Source of the DNA: Candidatus Omnitrophota bacterium
Lineage (GTDB): Bacteria; Omnitrophota; Gorgyraeia; Zapsychrales; JANLHA01
DNA length: 64,000 nucleotides
Assembly (NCBI GenBank): GCA_029560465.1
Contig: JAKQKX010000020.1
Span: 51,434-115,433, forward strand
Reading direction: 5' to 3'
The notes beneath the pieces were generated by a model that was not told the origin of the DNA, made no database searches, and saw nothing but the letters and a program-made list of their open reading frames with translations. Both the position numbers and the translations under genes were made by a program. Positions 3,691-23,809 of this stretch are shown here, piece by piece. How positions within the stretch are numbered: position 1 is the stretch's first letter; each line of letters begins with the position of its first letter.

Positions 3691-4422
3691 TCAGTCTTCG
3701 GCCACATTAATAAACTTTTCCATCTCCCGGGACTGCTGGCACAAGGTGCGCAGCTCTTCCGGTGTAGCGCTGCAGACATGGTCCGGGCCGACAAGCCCTT
3801 TATTAAGGGTAAAATGCTTTTCGATGATCCTGGCCCCCCTGGCCACAGCCACCAACGCCGCCTCGATGCCGATCGTGTGGTCGCTGAACCCGTCGTAAGG
3901 GGTCGCCTTAAATGACACCGGCAGATGGATGTCCTTGTACTCCGCCGGATATTTCGCCACGCAATACAGGTATTTCGCTTTGTCATAATCATACGGGACA
4001 TCCGCGTCTTCCCAAAAGCCAAGCGAAATAAAAGACTCTTTCCCGGTCGCGAATATCTTCCGGCACAGCGCTTTCTCCTCTACCGTGCGGCTCGCGATCT
4101 TATAGCGATTGACTTTTAAATTCTCCATCCATTCAAAGCGCTCTTCGTCGAACACCGAAGCCATAAATTCGATGCCTTCTTCGTCACACCAGGTTTTAAG
4201 CCGCTTGGCCTCGTCAAACCCGAACTGCACCGTCAGGGCAAACCGGTAGTTTTCCTCGTTAGGATAGCTTCCTTGCGGCCCGAAAATTTTAGCCGGGTCG
4301 TAAAACTGGAACTTGGCGATATCAGCCCCGCACTGTTTGGCCTGCTTGATCAACTCATGGGCCAGGTGAACGCTGCCGTTATGGTTGATCCCGATTTCCG
4401 CGATGATAATCATATGCACCAC
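3691..4422 (-). CDS. NeuB-family nonulosonic acid synthase homolog, catalytic TIM-barrel domain only, lacking the C-terminal SAF domain
   Basis: IIAEIGINHNGSVHLAHELIKQAKQCGADIAKFQ matches the NeuB/PseI N-terminus. At 243 aa it is too short to include a SAF domain. Confidence 0.65.
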   Translation of the reverse strand: MVHMIIIAEIGINHNGSVHLAHELIKQAKQCGADIAKFQFYDPAKIFGPQGSYPNEENYRFALTVQFGFDEAKRLKTWCDEEGIEFMASVFDEERFEWMENLKVNRYKIASRTVEEKALCRKIFATGKESFISLGFWEDADVPYDYDKAKYLYCVAKYPAEYKDIHLPVSFKATPYDGFSDHTIGIEAALVAVARGARIIEKHFTLNKGLVGPDHVCSATPEELRTLCQQSREMEKFINVAED

Positions 4423-6471: not shown

Positions 6472-7826
6472 GCGGCTTTCTCCTTTCTGGGCCTTTTCCG
6501 AACTGCGGTTTTCACCGCGTCCCAGACGCGCCGGCTGCACCGGCCGTCTCCATGCCCCATATAACTCCGGATAAATTCCTGTTTTTTTCCCCGGTTCATC
6601 TCAAACCTTTTTAAATGCATTTGCGGAAGCCGCTCAATCACATCCTCGATCTCCCAGGTCTCAATGACACCGGGGTAATTAAACTGGGAGCCTTCTTCCG
6701 CGGAAAACCAGAAGCGTTGCGCCTCATCAATAAAGAACTCCCTGGGTAAATTAATATTCAAACAGTACACCCCCGCGTAAATAGCGGTCAAAGAGGCCAG
6801 GCTGTAATACATGACGCACATACGGCTCACGGTCAGCAGTTCTTTTAATATAGGCGGGTTCTGCTGTGTTTCATCATCCCAGACAACCAGATCAGCGCAT
6901 TCCTTCACATAGTCCGCAACCGGGAATTTCATGCGCGGCTTCACCACCAGGTGCAAATTGTTCCGGCGGGAGAACCCCCGGATCGCCTGAAACACTTTCG
7001 CTTCATTCATACCCTGCGCCAAAAATCTCCGGCTTAGAGGATCCTGCATAACGCGCAACAAATTCCAACTCTTTTGTATAAAATCTTTAATAAGATAATT
7101 TTTCTTATCATGAGCATAGGAACCATCCGGGGCTGTCGCCGTATTCGCATAAAGCCCGCAGAACGCCCGCTCCCAGGCGGAGGACCGGTTCCGGTTGCAA
7201 TACGGGAACGGCAGATAAAGCAGAACATCTTTGTCCGGCGGCAGCCCGTATTTCGCCCGCACGGCGTCCGGATTAATGGTCTTAAACGCATCAAATTCCG
7301 CGTTCCCGGAGACAACGATGCGGGTATTATCCGGATAGAGATAATCCGTGTATCCCGGATGAAAATTTTTCAAAAATGCTTTTCCTTTTTCCGCGTAAAT
7401 CTCACTATAAACCAGAAACAGTTCTTTATTCCGTCGTTTCTTTAAAAACCCCAGTTTGGGTATATGAAAAAAGTTGTCCGGCCCGGTCATCAGCGTCACC
7501 CAGGTAAACGGGAATTCATCTAAAGAAGCGTCCGGGAGAGAAAACTTAGAAGGACAAATAGAGACTACTGCGTCAATCGTTTTGGCCTCACGCAATTTTT
7601 TATCCAAATCCTCCGGGCCTTCGAACATAATTCCAGTCGGCCGACATAATCCCGGAAAATCGGGAATATGTTCGATATACGGGAAAGAGAAGCTCTTTCT
7701 TCCCGTCCGGGGGGCGCTGTAATCATGCCAGCATTCCACGCTATAGCCCCGCCGTAACGCTTCCTGAATGACCGGCGTGTAATAACGGTAATAATTCGTC
7801 CTATAGACTAAAAATACGACCCGCAT
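6468..7826 (-). CDS. Putative capsule/teichoic-type glycosyl- or glycerophosphotransferase-like protein
   Basis: 452-aa soluble protein in the glycan locus with weak resemblance to the Capsule_synth / Glyphos_transf families. Assignment is by context only. Confidence 0.35.
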   Translation of the reverse strand: MRVVFLVYRTNYYRYYTPVIQEALRRGYSVECWHDYSAPRTGRKSFSFPYIEHIPDFPGLCRPTGIMFEGPEDLDKKLREAKTIDAVVSICPSKFSLPDASLDEFPFTWVTLMTGPDNFFHIPKLGFLKKRRNKELFLVYSEIYAEKGKAFLKNFHPGYTDYLYPDNTRIVVSGNAEFDAFKTINPDAVRAKYGLPPDKDVLLYLPFPYCNRNRSSAWERAFCGLYANTATAPDGSYAHDKKNYLIKDFIQKSWNLLRVMQDPLSRRFLAQGMNEAKVFQAIRGFSRRNNLHLVVKPRMKFPVADYVKECADLVVWDDETQQNPPILKELLTVSRMCVMYYSLASLTAIYAGVYCLNINLPREFFIDEAQRFWFSAEEGSQFNYPGVIETWEIEDVIERLPQMHLKRFEMNRGKKQEFIRSYMGHGDGRCSRRVWDAVKTAVRKRPRKEKAA

Positions 7827-8487
7827 GATCCCTCCACATGTTTTGCGCGATCAAAAAATCTTCTTCCGTATCGATATCGAACAATTCCAGTTTATCCTTC
7901 AACTCCACCAGTTGAACTTCCTTCCAGTCCCAGTAACGGCCATGCTGAAAAAAATAGTCTTTAGAGAAAAAATACAAGGCATGGGCGAACTCCAAAACCG
8001 GGTCCACGGTCTTGGTATTGATCGTCTGAAGCGACAAAGAAAAATTCAAAGGGTTGCGTTTCATATCGAAATAAAAATTATGGCGTTTCACGACGGCAAA
8101 CGCCGATTCCCAATTATGGTCACAGCATTGTTCCAGGAAATCCGCAATGGTTTTGACTTTTAAAAAAGGTAAACACCCGTTAATGATCAGAAAATATTGA
8201 TAAGGAAGATCCTTCAAAAACGACAGAATCTCCGTGATCGGCCCGTCGATCAGCACTGATTCCTGGCTGCGCTGGACAAATGGCACACCATGAACCCGGC
8301 ACTTATCCGCGAAATCCTGTTCATAACCGGCGAAAAACGTGTGCTCCCCCAACGCGCCCAACTTTTTCAGCATAATATCGGTGAGGGTCGTGTCCCCAAA
8401 CGGCCGGACCATTTTTTCAGGGCAGCGCTGGCTCTGTTTCCGGCCGAATGAAAAAACACCAATTTTTTGCCGCTCAACATGTGCCAT
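7801..8487 (-). CDS. Cytidylyltransferase family protein (CTP_transf_3; NeuA/KdsB/SpsF-like CMP-sugar synthetase)
   Basis: N-terminal FGRKQSQRCPEKMVRPFG resembles the AR-x-S-x-R-x-P-x-K...G motif. C-terminal FDIDTEEDF resembles the DIDTxED motif of KdsB/NeuA. Confidence 0.6.
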   Translation of the reverse strand: MAHVERQKIGVFSFGRKQSQRCPEKMVRPFGDTTLTDIMLKKLGALGEHTFFAGYEQDFADKCRVHGVPFVQRSQESVLIDGPITEILSFLKDLPYQYFLIINGCLPFLKVKTIADFLEQCCDHNWESAFAVVKRHNFYFDMKRNPLNFSLSLQTINTKTVDPVLEFAHALYFFSKDYFFQHGRYWDWKEVQLVELKDKLELFDIDTEEDFLIAQNMWRDHAGRIFSL

Positions 8488-9436
8488 TCAGGAACTCCTT
8501 AAAAGATATGTTAGGGATGCCGTCGACCGGCAGGGAATATTCAAACGGTTCATAGATATTGACAAAATTCATGCCCTGGTATTTCAGGATCTTTTCCAAA
8601 GCGGCAAACTCATGCGGCGGCCGCATGAAAGGGCGTTTATTCTCTTTAAAATTACCGCTGAAAGCCCGCCGCGCTTTTTTAAAAAATTTCCGGTAATGCG
8701 CCATGGATTTAAACGTGTAGCAAGCGGCATACTCCATGCTGCCCAGCATGGACATGTCCATCCCGAGGAAAAACACTTTATCAAAACCCATAAAATTCAG
8801 CACCGGGAACAACGCAATCGCCGAAGAATTCAGAAAACTGTAATCCTTAACGCGAGGCAGAGGCCCGCTTTCATCCAAGGCGTAATAATCCTGGAGATCA
8901 AAATCCCCGGCTGCCGGCCTGATCCCGCAGGTGTACACCGGATTGAGGCGGCAGAAGCTTTCTTTATAACTCTGGAAATTATCTTCTAAAGCCAGGCACG
9001 CTGTTTCCGGGAACCGGGATAACAATTCCAGCGGAGAATCCCGCAGGAACACGTCCGTCTTATAACGGAACCTCTTATGCACGCCGCGGTCCGGCCGGAA
9101 AGCCTCAAAGAACATCCGGAAGTTCTCTTTCAGGTACCGGTACTCGTCTTGGTATTCGTCCCGGATAAGGTCGGTTAAATCAATATCCGCCAAGAACGAT
9201 TGAAACACCACATGCTGAAACGCGTTGGATTTGCATTTTTCCAGATAAAACATAAGGTAAAAATCCGGCATCAAGTTCGCCTTCACAAAATACGGGGTCA
9301 GGGCCTTGCTTTCCAAAAACACCGTGACACGCCTGCGGTCAATACGTTCCAGAGGCACCCGGTTTTCAATGATCGAGGGGCCGCCGAGGATCACCAGCGC
9401 GTCGCGGCCGGCATAAGCGTTCTTTAATCGTTTCAT
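8474..9436 (-). CDS. DUF115 (MptE-like) protein, motility-accessory-factor (Maf)-like putative nonulosonic acid transferase
   Basis: ALVILGGPS-type motif near the N-terminus and a size of 320 aa. Position immediately downstream of pseI, as in Campylobacter/Helicobacter flagellin glycosylation loci. Confidence 0.5.
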   Translation of the reverse strand: MKRLKNAYAGRDALVILGGPSIIENRVPLERIDRRRVTVFLESKALTPYFVKANLMPDFYLMFYLEKCKSNAFQHVVFQSFLADIDLTDLIRDEYQDEYRYLKENFRMFFEAFRPDRGVHKRFRYKTDVFLRDSPLELLSRFPETACLALEDNFQSYKESFCRLNPVYTCGIRPAAGDFDLQDYYALDESGPLPRVKDYSFLNSSAIALFPVLNFMGFDKVFFLGMDMSMLGSMEYAACYTFKSMAHYRKFFKKARRAFSGNFKENKRPFMRPPHEFAALEKILKYQGMNFVNIYEPFEYSLPVDGIPNISFKEFLNGTC

Positions 9437-10485
9437 GACCCAGCGACCAGTTCCTTGGATAAAGGGGTGCCGCGGCGGATATCTTTCACCGCATGCCGCC
9501 CCATCACCTTACGCAGTTCTTTCGGCGGCAGCCCATAAGCCGGACGGATCGAGCGGATATTGTCAGCCGTGAATCGCTCGCCTCGTTTGATGTCCGCCAC
9601 AGCAAATAGGGACCGGCGGAACACCCGGCTCTTTCTTTCATTCTCAGTTTTAACATACGTCGCCGTCCCCAAAGCTTGTTCCGTAATCCGGATATTGTCA
9701 ACCAGCCTCTTAAACTCCCGCGGTTCCGTCGAAAAAAAGCTGTCCGGCGTTTTGTGCTTCCGGGTCAAGGTGAAATGTTTTTCGATCATGACCGCGCCCA
9801 GGCATACGGCAGCCACAGACGCGGCTAAAGTCAGAGTGTGATCCGAAAGCCCCACCGGCGCACGGAAACGCTTGGACATGTCCGGGATGACCTTCAAATT
9901 CATCTCCTGCGGTTGCGCCGGATAATTGCTCACGCATTTAAATAAAAGGATGTCTCGGGCCCCTCCCCGCCGGGCGGCCGTGACCGCGTCCTGAATCTCT
10001 TCCTTCTCCGCCATCCCTGTTGACAGGATAAGCGGTTTCCCGGTCCGGGCGGCGTGCGTGATCAAAGGGGTATCCACCAACTCAAAAGACGCGATTTTGT
10101 GTACCGGCACGTTAAGCGTTTCCAGGAAATCAACGGATGAGGCGTCAAATGCGGTCGCAAAAAACCCGAGGCCGACATCGTCCGCCACCGCTTTCAATTT
10201 TCTCAGCCAAGGCCAGGGGGTATACGCTTTTTGATAAAGCTGATACAGGGTCTGGCCGCCCCACTCTGGGTGGCGGATACGGAAATATTTATTACGGGCG
10301 TCAATCGTCATCGTGTCAGGAGTGTACGCCTGAAACTTAACCGCGTCCGCCCCGCATTCTTTCGCTTTGCGGATCATGGCCACCGCGCGCGGAAAACTTT
10401 GCCCGTGGTTCGCGGAAATCTCGGCGACGACATACACGGGGTATTGCCCCCCCACCAGCCTGTCCCCGATTTTAAACGATTTCAT
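9433..10485 (-). CDS. pseI: Pseudaminic acid synthase (NeuB family with SAF domain)
   Basis: VVAEISANHGQSF...AVKFQ NeuB motif; full length 350 aa with a C-terminal SAF-like region; located in the pse cluster. Confidence 0.85.
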   Translation of the reverse strand: MKSFKIGDRLVGGQYPVYVVAEISANHGQSFPRAVAMIRKAKECGADAVKFQAYTPDTMTIDARNKYFRIRHPEWGGQTLYQLYQKAYTPWPWLRKLKAVADDVGLGFFATAFDASSVDFLETLNVPVHKIASFELVDTPLITHAARTGKPLILSTGMAEKEEIQDAVTAARRGGARDILLFKCVSNYPAQPQEMNLKVIPDMSKRFRAPVGLSDHTLTLAASVAAVCLGAVMIEKHFTLTRKHKTPDSFFSTEPREFKRLVDNIRITEQALGTATYVKTENERKSRVFRRSLFAVADIKRGERFTADNIRSIRPAYGLPPKELRKVMGRHAVKDIRRGTPLSKELVAGS

Positions 10486-10497
10486 ATAATCCTTTCC

Positions 10498-10959
10498 TTA
10501 GAAATCATCCGGATACCGATACGTTAACACATCTTTGTCCTCGGAAAAACGCCGGTACCCGGCTTTCGCAAACGCCTTGACCGACGCCAGGTTCCCTTTA
10601 ATGATCCTGGCGATGACCGTGATCGCCCCGATCTCCTTCAAGAACTGTTCTGTCCCGGCCCGGATGACACGGGACCCAAGCCCCTGCCCCATGCAGGCGG
10701 GGTTGAGATGAACGCTCACCTGCGCGCCATCCCCTTCCGCCTCGAAGCGGATCACGCCCACTTTCTCCTCTCCCCGGCGGGCGATGTAAATCCGGCAACG
10801 GGAATCGGATATTTTCCGTTCAAACCACCGCTGATGCTCATCCCAGGGGACTACGGCGGTGTTAAAAAAATTTTTGCGGATGTCCGGGTGGTTACGCCAC
10901 TCCCAGATATCCCGCATATCCTCTTCCCAGGCCAAAGATACAACAATGTCTTCCTTCAT
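10498..10959 (-). CDS. pseH: GNAT N-acetyltransferase, likely UDP-4-amino-4,6-dideoxy-N-acetyl-beta-L-altrosamine N-acetyltransferase
   Basis: GNAT fold with the Q/R-x-x-G-x-G/A-like segment GQGLGSRVI. The start was trimmed to MKEDIVV so that it overlaps the PIG-L stop by 4 bp. Confidence 0.6.
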   Translation of the reverse strand: MKEDIVVSLAWEEDMRDIWEWRNHPDIRKNFFNTAVVPWDEHQRWFERKISDSRCRIYIARRGEEKVGVIRFEAEGDGAQVSVHLNPACMGQGLGSRVIRAGTEQFLKEIGAITVIARIIKGNLASVKAFAKAGYRRFSEDKDVLTYRYPDDF

Positions 10960-11636
10960 CGGATCGCCCTCACCACCTGAAAAGCTTCCGCGTACGCGCA
11001 ACCAGAGACGCTCCCCCACCGTTGCGCGATGGCCAATAAACTCTTTGCCGAACGGGGATGCGGCGCTGGCCGCATTTCCGAGCGGTAACACCGCATCGCC
11101 TTTATTTTCTGCACGATCGTCTCCTCAACATCAATATAAAGCGTCGGGTCAAAAGTCCGGGGATATGCCCATTCCGACGAGGACGGCACTTCAAACGCGT
11201 AAATTTCCCTGACCGGCTCTCCCTTCATGGGCCGGCAGGCGGTCATCACCGCGTTATACGTGATGCGGTGATCAATATTCAAATCACCCCAGTGATGCGT
11301 CAACACCGTGTCGGGCCGGACCTGCCGTTTGATCTCTTCCAGACGCTGGACAATTTCCAAAAGGGAAACCGTGTCCAGTTTGTTATCAGGAAGGTCAAGC
11401 TGATGCACGTCCTTCACGCCTAAGACCTGGTTGGCGGCCGTCATCTGCTCTTTCAATTTTTTCTTTTCGCGATCCTGTCTCCCGGAAGCGCCGTCGCTGT
11501 AACGCGCGGTCACCCCTTCTCCCAATATGACCGTCGCCACACTGTGCCCTTCTTTGACAAAACGGGCGACCGCCGCCCCGCACCCCAACACCTCATCATC
11601 CGGATGAGCCGCGACGACTAAAATTTTTTTCTTCAT
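10956..11636 (-). CDS. PIG-L/LmbE family N-acetyl-sugar deacetylase
   Basis: ILVVAAHPDDEVLG is the canonical HPDDE zinc-binding motif. Confidence 0.8.
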   Translation of the reverse strand: MKKKILVVAAHPDDEVLGCGAAVARFVKEGHSVATVILGEGVTARYSDGASGRQDREKKKLKEQMTAANQVLGVKDVHQLDLPDNKLDTVSLLEIVQRLEEIKRQVRPDTVLTHHWGDLNIDHRITYNAVMTACRPMKGEPVREIYAFEVPSSSEWAYPRTFDPTLYIDVEETIVQKIKAMRCYRSEMRPAPHPRSAKSLLAIAQRWGSVSGCAYAEAFQVVRAIR

Positions 11637-12328
11637 GCCGTCTCCTTTGGACAGATTTCAACCCGCGCGGTGAGCCGCCGGCCTTTCCTCTCTGCCGCAA
11701 AAAATTCAAACCGTAACGCCTTCGTTTCCAAAAACGCGCGGGGGTAACTTTCCGCGTCCAGCATGCGGATCCTGTCATACGCTTCCGGCACGGAAGAGAC
11801 AGAAACAAGGTCGCTCTCTTCGGGCGTCCTCCGCCGGAAAACGACCGCCGCCCCCTTCTGGGGCCGGGGGGTTATCGCGCCGTGAACAATCGCGGGCATC
11901 ATACGCCCGAAAATAACGGCCGCGGCCCGCCGGTAAATTTCCCCAGCCGACCCCCGCAAAGACAACGCGCGCTTCAAGTACACAGGTCCGGCGTCAAATT
12001 CTTCCGTGACCCTGATCGCGGTAATTTTTGTCGACCGGTGTCCCCGGACAATCAAATTCTGCAACGGGCTCCCGCCCCGGCCGTAAGGCAAATCCGTCAT
12101 GTGAAAAGCAACGCACGGGTACGCCGCATAGATATCCGGCGGGATTTTCCAGGACCAATGCGGAAAAAATATAAAATCCGGGTTATACTTTTTGACCGGC
12201 GCGAGGCGTAAATGGTCCCTATTCAGAATCAGGCGCACGGAAACGCACGGATTGTGTTTCCGGAAATCCCGTGCCGCCGCGATATTCCAAGTCTTAACCG
12301 TCGCGATGATAATCTTTTTCTTTTTCAT
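11633..12328 (-). CDS. Formyltransferase-domain protein (Fmt/PurN-like sugar N-formyltransferase)
   Basis: HMTDLPYGRGGSPLQNLI matches the formyl_trans_N H-x-S-L-P-x-x-RG motif. Start taken at MKKKKIIIA. Confidence 0.7.
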   Translation of the reverse strand: MKKKKIIIATVKTWNIAAARDFRKHNPCVSVRLILNRDHLRLAPVKKYNPDFIFFPHWSWKIPPDIYAAYPCVAFHMTDLPYGRGGSPLQNLIVRGHRSTKITAIRVTEEFDAGPVYLKRALSLRGSAGEIYRRAAAVIFGRMMPAIVHGAITPRPQKGAAVVFRRRTPEESDLVSVSSVPEAYDRIRMLDAESYPRAFLETKALRFEFFAAERKGRRLTARVEICPKETA

Positions 12329-13344
12329 AAAGCCACTCGGGGCTGCGCCGCCCCGGCGTTCACCACAGCATCCACGATCCGGAACGCTCCCTGGCCGTCC
12401 ACACAAGCCTTGCCGGTCTTAGCCAAGCCCTGGCGCAACCCTTTATCGTGATATTTTTTCAAGCCCGCCCGCAGGTTAACGAACACCTCCGGGGCTTCGA
12501 TTCTCCCGCAAAACTCAATCATCCCTTTATGCTGAAGCCCGCGGACGTTCGCGGACTGATTATCAGCCACGCAAACGGCCAAAGTCGGGACCCCGCACCG
12601 GGCCAACTCATACAGGGTTTGGCCGCCCGCCGACACCGCCAAATCCGCTTCCAGCATGCGGGCCTTCATCTGTTGGGCGTCCAGGGCCGCGACAAATTCG
12701 GTTCGCTCGTCCGCCTGCTCAAGCAACGCGGCGTCAGGCCCGCAGCCATGCCCTAAAATAACCGTCTTCTTCACAGCGGGGTATTCCGCTTTTATCGCCT
12801 GATAACACAGCGGCGTGGCCTGTTTCATATCGCTGCCGCCCATCGTTAATAAAATATTCTCAACGCTTTCGCGCACAGGTCTTTGGGGAACCGCCCAAAA
12901 CACCGAACGCAAAGGCATGTATTGTTCACCGAGAAGATAAACCGTCCCCTCCCGGGATGGGTATAAAAACTGTTCCGGACAGGCCGTGGCGTTGACGACA
13001 AACCCCGGAGGATAAAGCAAACGTTTATAATCATCCAGATAAACAACGGACCGGGCAGCTCCTGACACGGCGAGGTAAACAGGCTCCGGCGCCCAATAAG
13101 AATCGATCACAACGGCATCGAGACCCGAAGCCAAAAGGTTGTTTAAACACCCGTTTTCAAACCAGCAAAAAACGTCACTGGCCATGCCTTTTGTGAACGC
13201 GGCCGCTGATCCGTCCCCGTTAATAACCATGCGCGGGGTAAAATCCCGGGACTCAAAAGCCTGATACAACGCCGTGCACCGGGCGAGATGCCCGAATCCG
13301 AACCTTTTTCCCCCTTCGGTGAGGATCAGGACATCACGTTTCAT
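12325..13344 (-). CDS. pseG: UDP-2,4-diacetamido-2,4,6-trideoxy-beta-L-altropyranose hydrolase (MurG-like fold)
   Basis: N-terminal LILTEGGKRFGFGHLARCTALYQ matches the PseG GxGHxxRC motif. Length is 339 aa. Confidence 0.75.
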   Translation of the reverse strand: MKRDVLILTEGGKRFGFGHLARCTALYQAFESRDFTPRMVINGDGSAAAFTKGMASDVFCWFENGCLNNLLASGLDAVVIDSYWAPEPVYLAVSGAARSVVYLDDYKRLLYPPGFVVNATACPEQFLYPSREGTVYLLGEQYMPLRSVFWAVPQRPVRESVENILLTMGGSDMKQATPLCYQAIKAEYPAVKKTVILGHGCGPDAALLEQADERTEFVAALDAQQMKARMLEADLAVSAGGQTLYELARCGVPTLAVCVADNQSANVRGLQHKGMIEFCGRIEAPEVFVNLRAGLKKYHDKGLRQGLAKTGKACVDGQGAFRIVDAVVNAGAAQPRVAL

Positions 13345-14073
13345 TTATAGACTCGCCTCGAGGGCCGCCTGATATTTCATATAAAATTCCGCCTTGAGAA
13401 AATCCTGTTCATGATCAATTTCCGTGGCATAGCGCTCATCATGAACAAGAAGCGCCACCCGGTCTCCCATGTAAGCGTGCACTTTCAAGACCCCGGCCGC
13501 CGCCAGCAAGGGACCTCTTCTTAAAACAATGACCGCCCCATCCAACAAATACAGCGTGGGCAAATCCTGCATCCGGAAAGCATGGGCCGATGGTATAAAA
13601 GGGCGGATCAACCCGCTTTCGGGGTCCAGGATTTTCATCCATTCCGGCCGCTGATCAATCGCGTAGGCGGTCGCCACCGCCGTGCCATCCTCACGGGACA
13701 CCAGTTTTTGCACCGCCTCATCGATCTCCCCATCCTTGCGGATGGGGACATTCGCCTGAAGGGCCACGACAATATCAAAAGTTTTTCCACCCGCCTCTTC
13801 TTCCGCCTGTAAGGCGTGGCGCAAAGCGTCGTCGAACGGGGATGTGTCCCGGGCCAACTCCGCCGGACGCATGATCACCTCCGCGCCATACCTTCCGGCA
13901 ACGGCGCCAATCTCATCATTATCAGTGGACACAACGACCTTATTGCAAAGCCGGCTCTTCAACGCCATCTCGACCGTATAAGCAATAAGAGGCTTGCCGC
14001 AGAGGTCCCGCACATGCTTCATCGGCGCGCGCCGGCTTCCGCCCCTGGCGGGGATCACGCATAGCACATTCAT
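13345..14073 (-). CDS. pseF: Pseudaminic acid cytidylyltransferase (CMP-Pse synthetase)
   Basis: MNVLCVIPARGGSRRAPMKHVRDLCGKPLIAYT is a CTP_transf_3 N-terminus. Confidence 0.8.
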   Translation of the reverse strand: MNVLCVIPARGGSRRAPMKHVRDLCGKPLIAYTVEMALKSRLCNKVVVSTDNDEIGAVAGRYGAEVIMRPAELARDTSPFDDALRHALQAEEEAGGKTFDIVVALQANVPIRKDGEIDEAVQKLVSREDGTAVATAYAIDQRPEWMKILDPESGLIRPFIPSAHAFRMQDLPTLYLLDGAVIVLRRGPLLAAAGVLKVHAYMGDRVALLVHDERYATEIDHEQDFLKAEFYMKYQAALEASL

Positions 14074-14089
14074 GAAATCTCCCTTATTT

Positions 14090-15247
14090 TCATGCCAACA
14101 CCTTGATTAACGTTTGCACAACATGCCGCACGTCGCATTTACGCAACTGCGGATAAAGCGGCAGGGTCATGGCCCGCTCATAATACTGCTCCGCAAAAGG
14201 GAACTGCCCGCGCCGGTAACCAAACCGCTTCTGGTAATACGGCTGAAGGTGAATCGGTATATAATGGACCTGCGGGAGAATCCCCTCCCGCAGCAACGCC
14301 TGAAACGTCCTGTCTCTTAACGCCGCGTCTTTAAACTGGATCACAAAAATATGCCATGCGGCCTTCACGTCTTTCTTTTCCACCGGGAGAATAAAACGCG
14401 AATCTTGCGCCAGCAAAGCATGATACGTCTCCACGTGCGTTCTGCGCTGGTCAAGAAACCGGTCCAGTTTTCTCAACTGGGAAACCCCCAACGCGCACTG
14501 CAGATCGGTGATCCGGTAGTTATACCCCAGGACCGGCATCTCGTAATACCACGGCCCGTCGTTCCTGGTTAATAAACGCGGGGTTTTCGTCATCCCGTGC
14601 GTGCGGAAAATCTGCAGCCGCTCATAAAGGTCTTTACGGTTCGTCAGGATGGCCCCGCCTTCTCCGGTCGTGATGTTCTTCACCGGGTGAAAACTGAACA
14701 CGGTCATATCCGAATACGCGCCGCCGCCGATTTTTTTCCCGCGGTATTCCGCCCCCAGCGCATGACAGGCGTCTTCGATCACCAGAAGCTTACGCTTCCG
14801 GGCGATACGCCGGATCGCCGCCATATCAGCGGGGTGCCCGGCGAAATGCACCGGGATCAGCGCCTTGGTCCTGGCGCTGATCTTTTTTTCGATCGCCGCA
14901 GGATCTATATTCACCGTCTCCTCATCAATATCCGCGAACACCGGCGTCCCTCCGCAGTACACGACACAGTTCGCCGAGGCCAAAAATGTCACCGGAGATG
15001 TGATGACTTCGTCTCCCGGAGCGATCCCCGCGGCCAGGCAGGCCATGTGAAGCGCCGCGGTCCCGTTCGACACGGCCACCGCGTATTTCGCGCCGGTGTA
15101 CCGGCACAGGGCCTCTTCAAACTCCCTGATCTTCGGCCCCTGGGACAGCCAGTCCGAACGGAGCACATCCGTGACCGCTTTGATGTCGTCCTTGGTGATC
15201 GTCTGCCGACCGTAAGAAATTTTGCGTTTCCTCATCATCTTAACCAT
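14090..15247 (-). CDS. pseC: DegT/DnrJ/EryC1 PLP-dependent aminotransferase (UDP-4-keto-6-deoxy-AltNAc aminotransferase)
   Basis: Strong similarity to sugar aminotransferases: GPKIREFEE, AVSNGTAALH, SFHPVKNITTGEGG. Confidence 0.85.
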   Translation of the reverse strand: MVKMMRKRKISYGRQTITKDDIKAVTDVLRSDWLSQGPKIREFEEALCRYTGAKYAVAVSNGTAALHMACLAAGIAPGDEVITSPVTFLASANCVVYCGGTPVFADIDEETVNIDPAAIEKKISARTKALIPVHFAGHPADMAAIRRIARKRKLLVIEDACHALGAEYRGKKIGGGAYSDMTVFSFHPVKNITTGEGGAILTNRKDLYERLQIFRTHGMTKTPRLLTRNDGPWYYEMPVLGYNYRITDLQCALGVSQLRKLDRFLDQRRTHVETYHALLAQDSRFILPVEKKDVKAAWHIFVIQFKDAALRDRTFQALLREGILPQVHYIPIHLQPYYQKRFGYRRGQFPFAEQYYERAMTLPLYPQLRKCDVRHVVQTLIKVLA

Positions 15248-15249
15248 GG

Positions 15250-16695
15250 TTATTTCTTCACATACTCCTTAAATTTCTTAATGACGCCCCATTCCGTCAC
15301 CGCGCGGTAAACCCGCATCAACCGGTAAGAGCAATGCAGCCGGGAGACAAAACATCTGGCCAGCAATTTCCAGAGCGGGCGGTGGCCTTTGTAGACATAA
15401 TAATCAAACCACACGAAATAATGCATCAATCTCCGCCGGGGCAATCCCTTTAAATTCAGGACCGGCCGGGAACGTTCCCGCTCGACATCGAGCCGTTGGG
15501 GCAAAAGCTTCATCTCGCGGCACACCCGGTGGATTTCAGTGCCGGGATACGGGAAAAAGATGGAATGCGAAGGCCACATGTCCGGCTGGCAGGCGCGGTT
15601 GACCGCGATCGTCTGACGGACATCTTCCTCGGTTTCCGTGGGCAGGCCGATCATGTTCAAAAAATGCACTTTGAGCCTGTTCTCCCGGGCCAAGGACGCT
15701 GTGCGGATGATATCGTCATTCGAATAATGCCGTTTCATAATTTCCCGGCGGATGCGTTCGCTCCCCGACTCCACACCCACATTAATAAACGTAAAACCGC
15801 TCCCCCTCATGGCGGCAAACAGCGGGCCGAAATCCGTGTTCGGCGTGACCCGGATATTCACCCCGAAATCCAGCGGCACCGCCCGTTGGCTGTTAAAGGC
15901 CGCCAATTGTCGGCACAAATCCAGGGCCCAAGGCATATTCACGTTAAACGTCTCGACTTCAAAATACACCTCCCGCACAGACGGTTGCTGTTCCGTGATG
16001 TCCTGAAGCTCGGCGATAATGTTGCCGGCGGAACGGCAACGCACATACGCGCCTGAAGCGAGCTTCTTCAGGGCATGATTGGAACAGTACGTGCATTGAA
16101 ACGGGCACCCACGCCCCAACAAGACCGCCGGACGGCTGTCTAAATCCAGGGTCCAGGGCCGCCACATCTCCCGGTCCGGGAAAGGGAGCTCATCAAGGTT
16201 CTCCCAAAACGGCCGCAAACGGTTCTTTTCAACCTTGCCGTTACGGTTAAACCAAAAGTTCTCAATTCCAGACGGTGAACGGCCGCCCTCCAGTCTCTCA
16301 ACCAGTTCCAGGGTCGGGTATTCCCCTTCCCCCAGGCAAACGGCGTCCAGATCCGTCCCCAGCCCGTCTTCCGGGTTCAAAGAAAGATGGCACCCTCCCC
16401 CCAGAAGAAAAATCTGGGGGAATTCCGCCTTTATATTTTTTATCCAGCGGGTGATAAAAAAGAATTCGCTCGTGACCGCGGAAAAACACAGGACCGCCGG
16501 CTTAAAATCGTTGATAAAAGCCCGGAACGCGTCCATCCGCGTATCTTTCGTCAACACAAACAATGTCGTGCGGTGCCCGTGCTTCTTTAACAGCGCCGAA
16601 ATGTAGGAAATCCCGAAATTCATTTCTTCCTGGTACTGAAGCGGTTTTTCAGGAGAAAACACATTCTGGGACGAAAAAACAAACGCGATATTCAT
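15250..16695 (-). CDS. B12-binding-domain radical SAM enzyme
   Basis: N-terminal Rossmann-like cobalamin-binding domain; CxxxCxxC cluster GRGCPFQCTYCSN. Length is 481 aa. Confidence 0.8.
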   Translation of the reverse strand: MNIAFVFSSQNVFSPEKPLQYQEEMNFGISYISALLKKHGHRTTLFVLTKDTRMDAFRAFINDFKPAVLCFSAVTSEFFFITRWIKNIKAEFPQIFLLGGGCHLSLNPEDGLGTDLDAVCLGEGEYPTLELVERLEGGRSPSGIENFWFNRNGKVEKNRLRPFWENLDELPFPDREMWRPWTLDLDSRPAVLLGRGCPFQCTYCSNHALKKLASGAYVRCRSAGNIIAELQDITEQQPSVREVYFEVETFNVNMPWALDLCRQLAAFNSQRAVPLDFGVNIRVTPNTDFGPLFAAMRGSGFTFINVGVESGSERIRREIMKRHYSNDDIIRTASLARENRLKVHFLNMIGLPTETEEDVRQTIAVNRACQPDMWPSHSIFFPYPGTEIHRVCREMKLLPQRLDVERERSRPVLNLKGLPRRRLMHYFVWFDYYVYKGHRPLWKLLARCFVSRLHCSYRLMRVYRAVTEWGVIKKFKEYVKK

Positions 16696-16710: not shown

Positions 16711-17694
16711 TCAAAGGCCGGCAATGACCCGCTTTAATTGTTCAACCGTGAGCCACTGCTGGTTCGTGTCGCTGGTGTAAGCGAACCCCTCCGGGACAGA
16801 CGACAATTTATCATACTGGCAGTGAACCTCCTGTGTGTCAAAAAACTGCGGAAGAATGACATAATTGTCCCCGTCGATTTTCGTGTTACGGGATTCATCC
16901 CCGGAAATCAAGGTTTCATGGACTTTCTCCCCCGGGCGGATGCCGATTATTTTAAACGTGCAGTCCGGCTCGATGGCCCGGGCCAGATCAACGATCTTCA
17001 TGGAGGGAACCCGGGGGATAAAGACCTCCCCCCCTTCGGAAGTATCCAGGGCCTTGATAACAAGCTGGACGCACTGATCCAGCGTGATCCAGAAGCGGGT
17101 CATCCTTTCATCGGTGAGAGGAAACTCCCGGCATTTTTTGCTTTTCAAATTCAGGAACAACGGGATCACGCTCCCCCGGGACCCCATCACGTTCCCGTAA
17201 CGGACCGCGGAAAACTTGACCCTCCCGCCGGCGAAAGCGTTGGCGGCGATGAAAATTTTCTCCGCGACCAGCTTCGTCGCTCCGTAAAGGTTGACCGGGT
17301 TCACGGCCTTGTCGGTGGACAGCGCGACCACTTTTTTGACCCTGGCGTCAATCGCCGCGTTGACGATATTGTCGGCGCCGATGACGTTGGTCTTCACCGC
17401 TTCCGTCGGATTATATTCCAACGCCGGGACCTGCTTGAGCGCCGCGGCATGAACCACGTAATCGACCCCTTCGAAAGCCCGGTAAAGCCGGTCGCGGTCG
17501 CGGATGTCTCCGAGAAAATAACGGACCGGGTATTTCCGGTCCGGGAAAACCCGGGACATCTCGAACTGTTTAAACTCGTCCCGGCTGAAAATAATAAGCT
17601 TCTTCAACTGATATTTATTCAAAAGGACTTCTGTGAATTTCTTCCCGAACGACCCTGTCCCGCCGGTCACCAGCACCACTTTTTGATTCAACAT
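16711..17694 (-). CDS. pseB: UDP-N-acetylglucosamine 4,6-dehydratase (inverting)
   Basis: VLVTGGTGSFGKKF plus a CapD/FlaA1-like body. Start taken at MLNQKVV. Confidence 0.85.
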   Translation of the reverse strand: MLNQKVVLVTGGTGSFGKKFTEVLLNKYQLKKLIIFSRDEFKQFEMSRVFPDRKYPVRYFLGDIRDRDRLYRAFEGVDYVVHAAALKQVPALEYNPTEAVKTNVIGADNIVNAAIDARVKKVVALSTDKAVNPVNLYGATKLVAEKIFIAANAFAGGRVKFSAVRYGNVMGSRGSVIPLFLNLKSKKCREFPLTDERMTRFWITLDQCVQLVIKALDTSEGGEVFIPRVPSMKIVDLARAIEPDCTFKIIGIRPGEKVHETLISGDESRNTKIDGDNYVILPQFFDTQEVHCQYDKLSSVPEGFAYTSDTNQQWLTVEQLKRVIAGL

Positions 17695-17719
17695 GAGAAC
17701 TCCTTCATAAAATAACGCG

Positions 17720-18682
17720 TTATCCGATAGAAGATTTCCGTTTGAGTGCCCGGTACTCCGCGATCGTCCGCTCCACACCTTCGGCAAGCGAAATGCGCGG
17801 CGTAAAGCCCAACGCGGTCATCCGGTTTATATCCATGCATTTCCGGGCCATGCCGTCCGGCTTGCTTGTGTCCCACGCCAGCCGGCCCCGGAAACCCGCT
17901 TTCTGCGCGATCAATTCCGCCAGGGAACGGATCGTCACCTCTTTCCCGCTTCCCACATTAATAAATTCCGGAGAGTCATAGTGCTCCATCATATACACAA
18001 TCGCGGCCGCCGCATCATCCACGTGCAGGAATTCCCGGAGGGCGCTCCCGGTCCCCCAGAGGGGAACCGCGTCCCGGCCCTCATCCACCGCGTCAACCGT
18101 CTTTTTCACCAAAGCGGAAAGGACATGCGATTTATCCAAATCAAAGCAATCATTCGTCCCGTAGAGATTGCACGGCATCAGGCTGATCCCGGGAAACCCG
18201 TATTGCCGGTTATAATATTCCACCATCTTCAAACCCGCGATCTTGGCCAAAGCATACCCTTCGTTTGTCGGCTCCAAAGCGCCGGTCAACAGATAGTCCT
18301 CCTTCATGGGCTGCGGGCACTCCCTCGGGAAAATGCAGGAACTGCCCAAGAAACAAAATTTCCGGGCACCGTGGACATAAGCCTGATGAATAATATTATT
18401 TTGAATCACCAGGTTTTCATAAAGGAACTCCGCCTTATGTTCATTGTTGGCTTTAATCCCTCCCACCCGCGCTGCGGCGTCGATCACGATATCAGGTTTC
18501 TCCCGGGAGAAAAACTCTTTAACCGCTTCCGTATCCATCAAATCCAATTCCACCCGGGACCTTAAAACAAAATTGGAGAACCCCCTGCCTTTGAGCTGCC
18601 GCACAACGGCAGAACCGACCATGCCGTTATGCCCGGCCACAAAAATTTTATACTCCGGACGTATTTCAAATACCTTCTTCAC
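17720..18682 (-). CDS. fcl: GDP-L-fucose synthase (GDP-4-keto-6-deoxy-D-mannose 3,5-epimerase/4-reductase)
   Basis: IFVAGHNGMVGSA, YALAKIAGL and CNLYG are typical of Fcl. Confidence 0.8.
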   Translation of the reverse strand: MKKVFEIRPEYKIFVAGHNGMVGSAVVRQLKGRGFSNFVLRSRVELDLMDTEAVKEFFSREKPDIVIDAAARVGGIKANNEHKAEFLYENLVIQNNIIHQAYVHGARKFCFLGSSCIFPRECPQPMKEDYLLTGALEPTNEGYALAKIAGLKMVEYYNRQYGFPGISLMPCNLYGTNDCFDLDKSHVLSALVKKTVDAVDEGRDAVPLWGTGSALREFLHVDDAAAAIVYMMEHYDSPEFINVGSGKEVTIRSLAELIAQKAGFRGRLAWDTSKPDGMARKCMDINRMTALGFTPRISLAEGVERTIAEYRALKRKSSIG

Positions 18683-18696
18683 TTAACACCTCGTTT

Positions 18697-19248
18697 CTAT
18701 AAATGAATCTCCCGGGCCAGGGTTTCGAACACATTGACCCTCTTGCCGGCCAGCCATCCCGGAGGTTCCGCTTGCGGACGGCAGATAAAAAGCACCCCGT
18801 CCTCCAGGTCTTCCCGCTCCTCGTCAGAAAGAATCCGAAACCGGCAGCCCTGAAATTCCTCTTCCTTAAAAACCGACTGAACGAGCCAAGACACCTCCTC
18901 ATCCCCGCAAGCCCAGAAATCCCGTTCCCCGCTGCGGTAAAAACCGCGCACAATGTCCCGGATCGTCTGCTTATACCGCTTGATAGACCGAATCGTCTCC
19001 AGCGTGCAATGCCTGGATTTCTCCAACCGCTCGGACAAGCCTTTCGGCGTTAGCGTGTATTCAATTTTTCTTTTCGTGACTTGGCGAATATGAATATACC
19101 CCTGCTCAACAAGACGGCGCAGGAGCATATGGGTTGCCCCTAGAGATATGTTCAAATGACGGGAGAAGTCCCTCTGGCTGGCGGCACATTCCGCCCCAAT
19201 GATATTGATGAGCTCGGCTTCTTTTGTGTTCAGGGTATCTTTGATCAC
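18697..19248 (-). CDS. Winged helix-turn-helix transcriptional regulator (MarR/PadR-like N-terminal domain)
   Basis: N-terminal ELINIIGAECAASQRDFSRHLNISLGATHMLLRRLVEQGYI is an HTH plus wing. Preceded by its own AT-rich promoter region. Confidence 0.55.
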   Translation of the reverse strand: MIKDTLNTKEAELINIIGAECAASQRDFSRHLNISLGATHMLLRRLVEQGYIHIRQVTKRKIEYTLTPKGLSERLEKSRHCTLETIRSIKRYKQTIRDIVRGFYRSGERDFWACGDEEVSWLVQSVFKEEEFQGCRFRILSDEEREDLEDGVLFICRPQAEPPGWLAGKRVNVFETLAREIHL

Positions 19249-19384: not shown

Positions 19385-20794
19385 CTAACGGAATTTTATT
19401 TTCTTCATGGCAAAGAAACACATTTTAAAAAGCAATAAGCCGTGGCGGAAACGCTGAATCTGGGTTGTGCCATACGTTCTTTCCTTGTAACGGATCGGTA
19501 ACTCCAGGACTTTCAGGTTCAGCTTGACCGCTCCGAAGATAAGATCAAAATCGCCGAAAGGATCAAACGGGCCGAAATAGCCCCGATTAACGGCCAGTTC
19601 CTCATAATCACGCTTAAACAGCACTTTGGTCCCGCACAGGGTGTCTTTGAAACGCTGGCCCAAAAGCCAGCTGAAGAAAACCCCAAAAAACTTATTGGCA
19701 AGAAGATTAAGGAACCGCATGGCCTGCTTCTCCATGGGATAAACCAGCCGGCATCCGTTAATAAATTCCCCCCGGTTATGGCGGATCGCATCATAAAATT
19801 TAGGCAGGTCTTCCGGAGGAACGGTTAAATCCGCATCCAGGATCATCAGCACCTCTCCGGAAGCCCGGCTGAAACCCAGCCGCACGGCATCGCCCTTCCC
19901 CTTTCCCGTCTGCTTCAAAAGCTTTATGTCCTTCTCTGGATATCGCTGAATAACCCGCTCCACCTCTTCATAAGTGCCGTCTTGGGATCCGCCTTCGACA
20001 AAAATAAATTCCTGATGAAGCCCGAAGGCAGGGGTACGCAAAATCGCCTGTTCAATGTTCCCCTTCTCATTCCGGCAAGGAACCAAGACCGTGACGGAGA
20101 ACTCCCTTTCAAATTCAAAAACCGGCCGGGCGATCACGATATGGTTTAACGTGAGCGCGTTAAAAACCGGCAACGGTGCTATAAAACGGTTGATGACGTA
20201 ACTCAAGCCCCAGACCTGCAGCGGGAACAAAATAGCCCTCTCGGTTTTAACCGGCTCGTACCCCGTCAGGGTTAGAAAATTGCACAGGTCGTGGTATGTC
20301 AGCCAATTCTGAATTTTCTGCTTTATCTTTAACCCGGCTTTTTCCCCAAATTGAAGGATGGTCTGCCAGAGGTAACTGTAATATTCGACAATAATCCGCG
20401 TGTGCGCATGACAGAACGGCCTAAGGTCAGCCAGAAACAGCTGAATATCATCCAATTCCCCCAGCAAACCCGACAACACGATAAAATCAAATTTATCCGG
20501 ACACGAAAAATCTTTTAAAGCACAACATTCGAATCTTAATTGCGGGTATTTCCGCGCCGCGATTTCAACCGAACGGCCGCTGACATCAATCCCAACGCCG
20601 ACGGACGGTTTCAGTTCGTTCAAAAGGCCGCCGGTCGAGCAGCCGACTTCCAGGACCTTCTTCCCCTCCGGGATCAGGTAACGGTATTGTTTATAAAGCA
20701 ATTTATAATAATAACGGTTTTTCTCCAGGAAGCGGTCGCGCCGGTCAGCCAAATGGTCATAATGTTCAGCAATCGAATTAAGGGCGGTCGTCAT
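19385..20794 (-). CDS. Bifunctional class I SAM methyltransferase / family 2 glycosyltransferase (DPM1-like) fusion
   Basis: N-terminus has [15 protein letters not shown] (MTase motif I). C-terminus has [15 protein letters not shown]...LMILDADLT, the DxD of a GT2. Confidence 0.7.
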
Positions 20795-22936: not shown

Positions 22937-23809
22937 ATGAAAAAGCTAACCGATATTTTCGCGGACAAAGAACGCACGTTTTCTTTCGAACTCTTTCCGG
23001 CCAAAACCGAAAAAGGCTACCAAAACCTCCTGGCCACCATCGCCGAACTCGCCACCCTTAACCCGGACTATATTTCCTGCACGTACGGGGCCGGCGGCGG
23101 CAGCCGGGAACGGACTTTCGATATCGTCCAGCATATCCAGGACACATATCACCTGCCGGGGGTTGCACATTTAACCTGCGTCTGCCACACCCGGGACGAA
23201 ATCAAGGCGATCCTCCACAACATGCAAGAGAGGGGCATCTGTAACGTACTCGCCTTGCGGGGCGACCCGCCCCGCGACAATCCGGACTGGCAGCCAGGGC
23301 CGGACAATTTTCAATATTCCTGCGAACTGTGTGCATTTATCCGGCACCATTATGGCGACTTTTTCGCAATAGGCGTCGCGGGCTTCCCCGAAGGGCATAT
23401 CCTCTGCCCGGACCGGGAGCAGGACGCCCGTTACCTGAAAATCAAAATAGACAGCGGCGCCGATTTTGTGACCTCACAATTATTTTTCAACAATCAAGAT
23501 TATTTTGATTACGTTGAAAGATTAAGAAGGCTGGGGGTCAACGCGAGGGTCATCCCGGGGATACTCCCCATCACGAATTACGACAACTTAATCCGTTTCT
23601 GCCAAAACTGCGGCACAACGGTCCCGCAAGAGATCCATGACATTTTCCGCCCCGTCAAGGATGATCCGGAACGCTCTCTTGAAAAAGGGATTGACTTCGC
23701 GGTCCGGCAATGCCGGGATCTGCTGGATCATGGCGCGCCAGGCCTGCACTTCTACGCCCTAAACAAACTCCATCCGGTGGACGCCATCCTGACCGCGGTC
23801 CGCGGATAA
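22937..23809 (+). CDS. metF: 5,10-methylenetetrahydrofolate reductase
   Basis: SFELFPAKT...CTYGAGGGSRERT...ALRGDPP are MetF hallmarks. Confidence 0.9.
   Translation: MKKLTDIFADKERTFSFELFPAKTEKGYQNLLATIAELATLNPDYISCTYGAGGGSRERTFDIVQHIQDTYHLPGVAHLTCVCHTRDEIKAILHNMQERGICNVLALRGDPPRDNPDWQPGPDNFQYSCELCAFIRHHYGDFFAIGVAGFPEGHILCPDREQDARYLKIKIDSGADFVTSQLFFNNQDYFDYVERLRRLGVNARVIPGILPITNYDNLIRFCQNCGTTVPQEIHDIFRPVKDDPERSLEKGIDFAVRQCRDLLDHGAPGLHFYALNKLHPVDAILTAVRG

Follow-up and report, generated by a model that had tools for sequence, protein, structure and literature searches.

The window analysed here is a stretch of 64,000 nucleotides (nt) from a Candidatus Omnitrophota bacterium (contig JAKQKX010000020.1), and the gene under study, rSAM1, encodes a radical S-adenosylmethionine (SAM) enzyme with a B12-binding domain that lies in an operon of the type responsible for the synthesis of pseudaminic acid (Pse). 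Pse and related nonulosonic acids, found on flagella, pili, S-layers, capsules and O-antigens, influence recognition by the immune system and by phages. To our knowledge, all the diversity described among these sugars consists of stereochemistry and of N- and O-substituents arising from polar chemistry, and the canonical pathway of six enzymes (PseB, PseC, PseH, PseG, PseI and PseF) includes no radical SAM enzyme. A first-pass annotation of the window had placed such an enzyme between pseC and pseB and suggested that it might perform a new tailoring step. Here we examine the gene and its neighbourhood, its conservation, its resemblance to characterised enzymes, and the reactions that it might catalyse.

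A radical SAM gene in the core of a pse operon

The open reading frame (ORF) of rSAM1 coincides exactly with the interval originally assigned to it, and encodes 481 amino acids (aa) from an ATG start preceded, 5-9 nt upstream, by the Shine-Dalgarno sequence AGGAG. Two Pfam domains were recognised above their cut-offs, the B12-binding domain PF02310 (residues 25-131, 58.3 bits, cut-off 32.1) and the Radical_SAM domain PF04055 (residues 193-363, 73.1 bits, cut-off 29.5). The protein contains a single CxxxCxxC motif (C197, C201 and C204), invariant in 28 aligned homologues, which in the radical SAM superfamily supplies the three cysteine ligands of the [4Fe-4S] cluster. Because these matches reach E-values of 1e-16 to 1e-20 and are accompanied by hundreds of full-length homologues, rSAM1 is not a chance ORF. 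Its AlphaFold2 model (pLDDT 92, pTM 0.91) displays a class-B-type fold, with a predicted architecture of an N-terminal cobalamin-type Rossmann domain, a barrel for the [4Fe-4S] cluster and SAM, and a helical C-terminal cap. Motif, PF04055 score and fold concur in making rSAM1 a member of the radical SAM superfamily, and the Rossmann-type PF02310 domain predicted ahead of the radical SAM core is the arrangement by which class B is recognised. The DxHxxG His-on motif was not found in the rSAM1 sequence, which is consistent with a His-off mode of cobalamin binding. No transmembrane segment was found in the protein, and its basic, aromatic-rich C-terminal helices might allow peripheral membrane binding.

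The gene follows pseB after 15 nt and precedes pseC by 2 nt, all three on the same strand, and the matches of both neighbours to equivalog models (TIGR03589 and TIGR03588) confirm the insertion in the operon core (Table 1). PseB, PseC and PseI pass their NCBIfam equivalog cut-offs, while the PseF-, PseG- and PseH-like proteins all score below theirs. All six canonical Pse functions are encoded, and therefore rSAM1 constitutes an extra gene inside a complete pse-type operon core. Compared with the canonical pathway, the operon additionally contains a radical SAM gene between those for steps 1 and 2 as well as genes for a formyltransferase and for a PIG-L deacetylase, and the location of the latter two between pseG and pseH suggests, as far as sequence can indicate, an N-formylated Pse derivative.

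Table 1. Genes and junction of the pse operon in the window
Feature	Position	Strand	Evidence and remarks
MarR-type regulator	18697-19248	-	Pfam; first in the pse sub-operon, with the Fcl-like gene
Fcl-like epimerase/reductase	17720-18682	-	Pfam; GDP-L-fucose synthase model 422 bits, below cut-off 500
pseB, UDP-GlcNAc 4,6-dehydratase (inverting)	16711-17787	-	TIGR03589, 488 bits (cut-off 408)
rSAM1, radical SAM enzyme with B12-binding domain	15250-16695	-	ORF; PF02310 and PF04055; CxxxCxxC; AlphaFold2 model; dN/dS
pseC, pyridoxal phosphate-dependent 4-aminotransferase	14090-15247	-	TIGR03588, 507 bits (cut-off 424)
Empty rSAM2 junction between pseC and pseF	14082-14093	-	only the first 9 nt of rSAM2, ATGAAAATA, remain
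pseF-like cytidylyltransferase	13345-14073	-	TIGR03584, 120 bits, below cut-off 206; Pfam CTP_transf_3
pseG-like UDP-sugar hydrolase	12325-13344	-	TIGR03590, 122 bits, below cut-off 154
Sugar N-formyltransferase-like protein	11633-12406	-	Pfam Formyl_trans_N and Formyl_trans_C_2
PIG-L family de-N-acetylase	10956-11636	-	PF02585, 96 bits
pseH-like GNAT N-acetyltransferase	10498-11091	-	TIGR03585, 68 bits, below cut-off 93
pseI, pseudaminic acid synthase	9433-10485	-	TIGR03586, 448 bits (cut-off 340)

The likely starts of three of these genes lie inside the tabulated ORFs: at ATG 17694 for pseB (the TIGR03589 match begins at residue 32 of the long ORF, and the resulting 327-aa form is also the one called in relatives), at ATG 12328 for the formyltransferase-like gene (231-aa form in relatives) and at ATG 10959 for the pseH-like gene (153-aa form in relatives). 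The order of the MarR and Fcl-like genes at the head of the sub-operon is the same in six related loci (L081, L084, L089, L091, L096 and L097).

Conservation in the lineage and spread of the family

The genomic places of the nine closest relatives of the protein (P0001-P0009, 56-99% identity) were found by exact-protein look-up, and the arrangement pseB-rSAM-pseC, in the same order and orientation, occurs in all nine. The gaps between the radical SAM gene and its two neighbours stay at 2-15 nt in relatives down to 56% identity. The region downstream of pseC is reshuffled, the constant block being pseB-rSAM-pseC-pseF: some relatives carry formyltransferase, PIG-L and GNAT genes there, as in the window, while L081 has a PglD-like acetyltransferase, E1 alpha and beta subunits and a lipoyl-domain protein, and L082 and L091 have MBOAT, GNAT and a HisH/HisF-type amidotransferase set. 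The formyltransferase is not present in L089, and the formyltransferase/PIG-L pair is swapped for other acyl-tailoring genes in L081 and L082; the variable part of the operon is N-acyl tailoring.

The identities of PseB, the radical SAM protein and PseC drop together among these relatives (89/85/87, 84/77/62, 73/61/54 and 69/56/55%). Relative to L089, the ratio of nonsynonymous to synonymous substitution rates (dN/dS) is 0.105 for the radical SAM gene, 0.052 for pseB, 0.120 for pseC and 0.094 for pseI, so that rSAM1 is under purifying selection, with a ratio of about 0.10, similar to those of pseC and pseI. The pse-linked sequences form one clade in a neighbour-joining tree, its nearest neighbours being two Omnitrophota loci with a NeuB gene within 10 kb; a metagenome scan for further close relatives returned three loci, none of them close. 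Conserved synteny, co-divergence with pseB and pseC, and purifying selection together provide good evidence for rSAM1 as a functional gene that acts jointly with the pse genes of this lineage.

The family to which rSAM1 belongs is large. When 1.84 billion cluster representatives were searched exhaustively, 2106 proteins matched at E<=1e-30, and beyond the nine close relatives there is a long plateau of full-length homologues at about 50% identity from Omnitrophota, Planctomycetota, Actinomycetota, Margulisbacteria, Scalindua and others, the family including both bacteria, Patescibacteria among them, and archaea. An alignment of 28 members contains 68 invariant columns. When the comparison is extended to 86 sequences, the lowest at 35% identity, 38 positions remain conserved in at least 95% of them, and rSAM1 keeps all 38; these positions include the cluster cysteines, C120 (in DAxCxGEGE), N206/H207, and the arginines R195, R219, R221, R316, R322 and R408.

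The genomic contexts of distant members were surveyed in 80 loci from GTDB species genomes (35-53% identity), in which genes were called, crudely, as the longest non-overlapping ORFs. The order pseB-rSAM-pseC occurred in none of the 80 and a NeuB-family gene within 10 kb in only four, and the notion of a pse-specific family was consequently rejected; three relatives at 52-54% identity (P0010, P0017 and P0039) likewise lie in contexts other than pse. The surveyed loci contain GT2 glycosyltransferases (29 loci), GT4 glycosyltransferases (23), epimerases or dehydratases, paralogous radical SAM enzymes with B12-binding domains, and ABC transporters (11 each), with DegT aminotransferases, flippases and carbamoyltransferases also among their genes. 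A glycan-type gene was present within five genes on either side in 42 of the 80, which is a lower bound, as many neighbours remained unlabelled under the crude gene calling. The 102 immediate neighbours encoded on the same strand include 12 GT4, seven GT2, six radical SAM, six flippase, six GDSL, five methyltransferase and five polysaccharide deacetylase genes. P0010 (52%) lies within a Wzx/Wzy cluster alongside three other radical SAM genes, and P0039 (54%) between a Wzy gene and GT4 genes. In a glycan cluster of an Omnitrophota metagenome-assembled genome (L018, 700-14700), the homologue of rSAM1 is found with genes for an ATP-grasp protein, a plain radical SAM enzyme, two further B12-domain radical SAM enzymes, a TylF-type methyltransferase, NeuB, a GNAT protein and a flippase. 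This locus and two others, L010 and L092, demonstrate that polysaccharide clusters encoding several radical SAM enzymes are common among such uncultured anaerobes.

Natural fusions with glycosyltransferases occur in some members, in the arrangements rSAM-GT4-GT2-GT4 (P0124, 2088 aa, 48% identity), rSAM-GT2 (P0125, 45%), rSAM-GT4-GT2 (P0146) and rSAM-GT2-TPR (P0233). In relatives further removed, the fusion partner is a class I methyltransferase or a methyltransferase combined with an APH-type kinase (P0207, P0229 and P0252 being among the fusions noted), and the methyltransferase-kinase combination resembles the architecture of O-antigen polymerase and terminator proteins. The GT2 and GT4 fusions make a predicted glycan-related function of the family hard to doubt, and with the pse synteny they render unlikely the outcome that would have undone the initial proposal, namely a protein unrelated to sugar chemistry.

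Likeness to characterised enzymes and candidate reactions

All the top Foldseek matches to the AlphaFold2 model are radical SAM enzymes. The best matches in the PDB are MgmA/QCMT (9CCB), TsrM, AprD4, CysS, OxsB and TokK (14-20% identity, E-values of 5e-22 to 5e-17), with query TM-scores of 0.61-0.71 for MgmA/QCMT, TsrM, CysS, TokK and OxsB. These five, which act on peptides, tryptophan, carrier-linked small molecules or nucleotides, share a three-domain fold with rSAM1. In a profile search against PDB sequences, the radical SAM core matched AprD4 best (6FD2, E 1.4e-20) and also MgmA. The profile of the N-terminal domain aligned with the cobalamin domains of CysS (1.2e-9) and TokK (6.5e-8), with GGxH and GEGE stretches in common; the N-terminal domain of AprD4 does not align with the rSAM1 profile, AprD4 matching the core only. 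AprD4-type proteins do not bind cobalamin despite their Rossmann-like domain (PMC12931638). In TokK and CysS a tryptophan lies beneath the corrin (preprint 10.1101/2021.07.10.451909), and at the positions where these enzymes carry it the rSAM1 family has Ser/Thr followed by a near-invariant Glu. The host uses cobalamin, since the window encodes MetH (34942-38676, minus strand), a full-length cobalamin-dependent methionine synthase of 1244 aa.

No curated family claims the protein, as the 27 NCBIfam matches are all weak and none comes near its cut-off. The lipid/ladderane model TIGR04072, which the first-pass annotation had named for a profile search, gave 78.2 bits against a cut-off of 360, and every other curated class-B family model failed as well, including that of the AprD4 diol dehydratase family (NF033070, 62.7 bits, cut-off 500).

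Most characterised class-B radical SAM enzymes are methylases, of which GenK, GenD1, Fms7 and MoeK5 act on sugars (PMC9204698); the GenK reaction is a methylation at C6' of an aminosugar ring (PMC9204698; PMC4039129). With their B12 and radical SAM domains and their sugar-carbon targets, these four enzymes, as described in the literature, offer the closest functional analogy to the proposed step; they differ in belonging to secondary metabolism (aminoglycosides and moenomycin) and in acting on pseudo-oligosaccharides. Fom3 methylates an sp3 carbon of the nucleotide-activated substrate 2-HEP-CMP (PMC8158854), and is a precedent for chemistry of this class on intermediates that carry CMP or UDP, as in the Pse pathway, although its substrate is a phosphonate and not a sugar, and the model of the related PhpK-family P-methyltransferases gives rSAM1 only 72 bits against a cut-off of 600. 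Not all class-B enzymes methylate: HpnJ, BchE and OxsB are non-methylases, HpnJ being proposed to contract a glucosamine ring (PMC9204698). HpnJ resembles the role proposed for rSAM1 in acting on an aminosugar moiety, and differs in its lipid-linked sugar substrate, in its chemistry, and in a family cut-off five times the score of rSAM1. No hopanoid genes were found among the annotated ORFs of the window. AprD4, a radical SAM 1,2-diol dehydratase of apramycin biosynthesis and a top fold match to rSAM1, also has an aminosugar substrate.

The best explanation of these data, in our judgement, is that rSAM1 belongs to a large uncharacterised, glycan-associated family of class-B type, which has become fixed in the pse operon of this lineage as a seventh enzyme. 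As for its reaction, we tentatively favour a cobalamin-dependent C-methylase acting on a sugar carbon in the pse context, a reading to which we would give slightly less than an even chance. Methyl transfer is a guess from base rates and is put forward as a leading hypothesis only; it is preferred because most characterised class-B enzymes methylate, several of them on sugars, and it is plausible on an activated sugar because Fom3 accepts a nucleotide-activated substrate. In such a reaction, the reduced [4Fe-4S] cluster would split SAM to give a 5'-deoxyadenosyl radical, which would take a hydrogen atom from an unactivated carbon. The carbon would belong to a nucleotide-activated 6-deoxy-hexosamine or Pse intermediate, if not to a sugar already within the glycan. 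The substrate radical would then receive a methyl group from methylcobalamin, a second SAM would restore methylcobalamin, and the outcome would be a C-methylated Pse derivative, N-acylated afterwards through the products of the formyltransferase, deacetylase and GNAT genes. The six arginines conserved in at least 95% of the sequences would fit an anionic substrate linked to UDP, CMP or pyrophosphate. A small change such as a methyl group is favoured over skeletal rearrangement because all six Pse enzymes are retained. Since the radical SAM gene is constant and the N-acyl genes are not, a lineage-specific acyl group is a less likely target than the skeleton of the sugar or the common N-acetyl group of an intermediate derived from UDP-GlcNAc.

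Several observations weigh against the methylase reading. We know of no C-methylated nonulosonic acid, and none turned up in our literature searches. Cobalamin binding by rSAM1, although likely, is itself a prediction from sequence. The best NCBIfam match is HpnJ (TIGR03471, 116.9 bits, cut-off 577.6), a non-methylase, while the methylase models were all missed (in bits/cut-off: HpnR 61/650, PhpK 72/600, KedN5 25/700, Trp-2-C-MT 24/500, TIGR04014 57/360 and TIGR03975 33/282), and Foldseek places the non-methylases AprD4 and OxsB alongside methylases. Other observations bear on the substrate: most family members at 35-54% identity are outside pse operons, only F7 and L346 distinguish the pse clade at conserved positions in a specificity-residue test, Actinomycetota homologues (50-54%) occur in a context without a glycan link, and the homologue of the cultured bacterium Alkaliflexus imshenetskii DSM 15055 (43%) is an orphan between recA/ahpC and TPR/nfeD/floA. 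Since most members lie outside pse operons and so few positions are clade-specific, the substrate may be a generic sugar or glycan feature and not a pse-specific intermediate; the few clade-specific positions imply a chemistry, and probably a recognised substrate moiety, that the whole family has in common. The initial suggestion of a new Pse tailoring step is accordingly sustained as regards the bond between rSAM1 and the operon, with its invariant synteny and purifying selection, and weakened as regards a substrate peculiar to the Pse pathway.

A wider reading, which we consider possible if somewhat unlikely, is that rSAM1 leads to a nonulosonic acid of altered skeleton, whether C-alkylated or radically rearranged or epimerised (for example, a 9-C-methyl ten-carbon sugar acid, or one with its N-acetyl extended to N-propionyl), and that the family constitutes a widespread, unrecognised radical tailoring layer of the surface glycans of anaerobic, mostly uncultured bacteria and archaea. 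On this reading, the members of a family of roughly 2000 clusters are often joined to glycosyltransferases and occur with as many as three or four other B12-domain radical SAM enzymes per gene cluster. Radical chemistry on the sugar without methylation, such as rearrangement or ring contraction, diol dehydration, dehydrogenation or epimerisation, would yield an isomeric or deoxy nonulosonic acid instead. It finds precedents in the ring contraction proposed for HpnJ (PMC9204698) and in the reaction shown for OxsB on deoxyribose, and it would accord with the rank of HpnJ among the NCBIfam models (117 bits, with AprD4 at 63), with the rank of an aminosugar diol dehydratase, AprD4, among the PDB sequence matches, where it is best, and among the top folds together with OxsB, and with two family-wide cysteines outside the cluster motif, C120 and C369, which could donate hydrogen atoms. 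Set against this are the distance of the HpnJ and AprD4 scores from their family cut-offs, the restriction of the AprD4 resemblance to the radical SAM core when the N-terminal domain of rSAM1 resembles true cobalamin domains, and the six retained Pse enzymes, which demand a compatible intermediate and disfavour drastic skeletal change. We regard non-methylating chemistry as unlikely, if a serious contender.

The place of rSAM1 between pseB and pseC might alternatively reflect co-regulation and shared descent, with the enzyme modifying, by methylation or other chemistry, the assembled lipid-linked glycan or another sugar of it. The fusions of relatives to GT2, GT4-GT2 and GT4-GT2-GT4 and, among distant ones, to a methyltransferase with or without a kinase speak for this, as do the GT4, GT2, flippase and deacetylase genes that prevail among immediate neighbours elsewhere, the mere two pse-clade-specific substitutions at conserved positions, and a methyltransferase-GT2 fusion gene of the window that co-occurs with family members in unrelated loci (50-53% identity). 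We nevertheless judge it quite unlikely, given that the radical SAM gene lies strictly between pseB and pseC down to 56% identity while the downstream genes reshuffle, and that its product lacks a transmembrane segment. A housekeeping or lipid role of the family, such as modification of an isoprenoid carrier or of membrane lipids, with an incidental location in the pse operon, appears very improbable. The Alkaliflexus imshenetskii orphan would suit such a role, as would the Actinomycetota row of radical SAM gene, small ORF, HMG-CoA-synthase/DUF35 and thiolase, the 38 of the 80 loci without a recognisable glycan gene within five genes on either side under crude calling, and the lipid-pathway nature of the top NCBIfam matches (HpnJ and the ladderane radical SAM enzyme); yet those matches score far under their cut-offs, and the glycosyltransferase fusions, the family's enrichment in clusters of polysaccharide genes and the unvarying pse synteny of the close clade point elsewhere. 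That rSAM1 is a decaying or non-functional insertion is hardly credible and effectively refuted by an intact ORF, 38 of 38 conserved positions kept, a dN/dS of about 0.10 and presence in every close relative; nothing supports it directly, although the presence or absence of a second gene of this kind, rSAM2, described below, shows that gene loss happens in this operon.

The first-pass annotation had regarded a radical modification of a Pse intermediate as undescribed, and full-text searches bear this out: no paper describing a radical SAM or cobalamin step in the biosynthesis of pseudaminic, legionaminic or nonulosonic acid turned up. Searches for B12-domain radical SAM enzymes in polysaccharide or O-antigen clusters gave nothing relevant, and the words sugar, glycan, polysaccharide, aminoglycoside and UDP are all missing from a 2026 review of B12-dependent radical SAM enzymes. 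The nearest observation concerns phase-variable, uncharacterised radical SAM genes of MoaA/SPASM type, not of B12 type, in Campylobacter fetus, whose locus also contains methyltransferase, SDR (short-chain dehydrogenase/reductase) and formyltransferase-domain genes and is possibly a surface-glycan locus (PMC6321876). The enzyme class is known, while its recruitment to the core of nonulosonic acid synthesis and the glycan-associated family appear undescribed. The conservation of rSAM1 in the pse core suggests a chemically new version of Pse in this group of uncultured bacteria. If a conserved radical SAM step does operate in the core of the pathway, nonulosonic acids would gain a new kind of modification, at carbon, and class-B radical SAM enzymes a first role in the biosynthesis of primary cell-surface glycans. 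Because the family is large (2106 representatives), spans many phyla and in some organisms forms fusions with glycosyltransferases, characterising a single member biochemically would provide an annotation for thousands of genes and might bring new sugar structures to light.

A second radical SAM gene and other genes of the window

The rSAM2 gene, absent from the window apart from the remnant listed in Table 1, is present between pseC and pseF in L084 (12603-13973) and L085, a strain 99% identical in DNA; comparison by blastn reveals a clean indel of 1349 bp corresponding to rSAM2. The gene encodes 456 aa, 27% identical to rSAM1, with HpnJ (194 bits) and BchE (181 bits) as best NCBIfam matches, and also occurs in L089, L090 and L096; the strain of assembly GCA_030153525.1 is a carrier of rSAM2. 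L097, at 90% identity, has the same empty junction as the window, and for this reason we consider the polymorphism old; it was probably spread by recombination. Presence or absence between strains 99% identical suggests that these enzymes drive strain-level variation of the cell surface.

The methyltransferase-GT2 fusion mentioned above (19385-20794, minus strand, 469 aa) has homologues at 50-53% identity a few genes away from rSAM1-family members in Desulfobulbaceae, Thermodesulfatator and Syntrophales (L030, L054, L055 and L061), and as judged from these loci the fusion may be a recurrent partner of the family. In the Actinomycetota clade, the rSAM1 homologue is followed by a conserved ORF of 109-121 aa without a Pfam match, and in L094 this small ORF is followed by an HMG-CoA-synthase/DUF35 fusion and then a thiolase; a homologous neighbour (c25) is also present in L007, L012 and L043.

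Three ORFs downstream of pseI (8474-9436, 6468-7826 and 5251-6540, minus strand; 320, 452 and 429 aa) have no Pfam or NCBIfam match and no multi-pass membrane character, with at most one weak hydrophobic stretch. Two of them, those of 320 and 452 aa, are kept beside pseI in close relatives (65-88% and 37-79% identity, respectively), and the three are candidate transferases for the modified sugar. The window further contains a gene for a short second NeuB-family protein of 243 aa (3691-4422, minus strand), consisting of the TIM barrel without a SAF domain and scoring 183 bits on the NeuB model, below its cut-off, and a second cytidylyltransferase-like gene (7801-8487, minus strand); the two may represent a second keto-sugar-acid branch.

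The methylenetetrahydrofolate reductase (MTHFR) gene (22937-23809, plus strand) directly borders the glycan cluster and is the only large plus-strand gene between about 1 and 39 kb; this arrangement is conserved in L081, L084 and L089. A role of MTHFR as dedicated methyl supplier was considered and rejected, as the gene is divergently transcribed, MetH is encoded 11 kb away, and the pair looks like an ordinary methionine cycle. GC skew stays below zero in all 2-kb bins of the window (-0.06 to -0.19), and the minus strand carries nearly all of the long ORFs. The regions at 28-30, 50-52 and 58-62 kb stand out by an unusually high AT skew (0.22-0.29) and hold large ORFs without family matches (28242-30077, 57636-59357 and 59501-61180).

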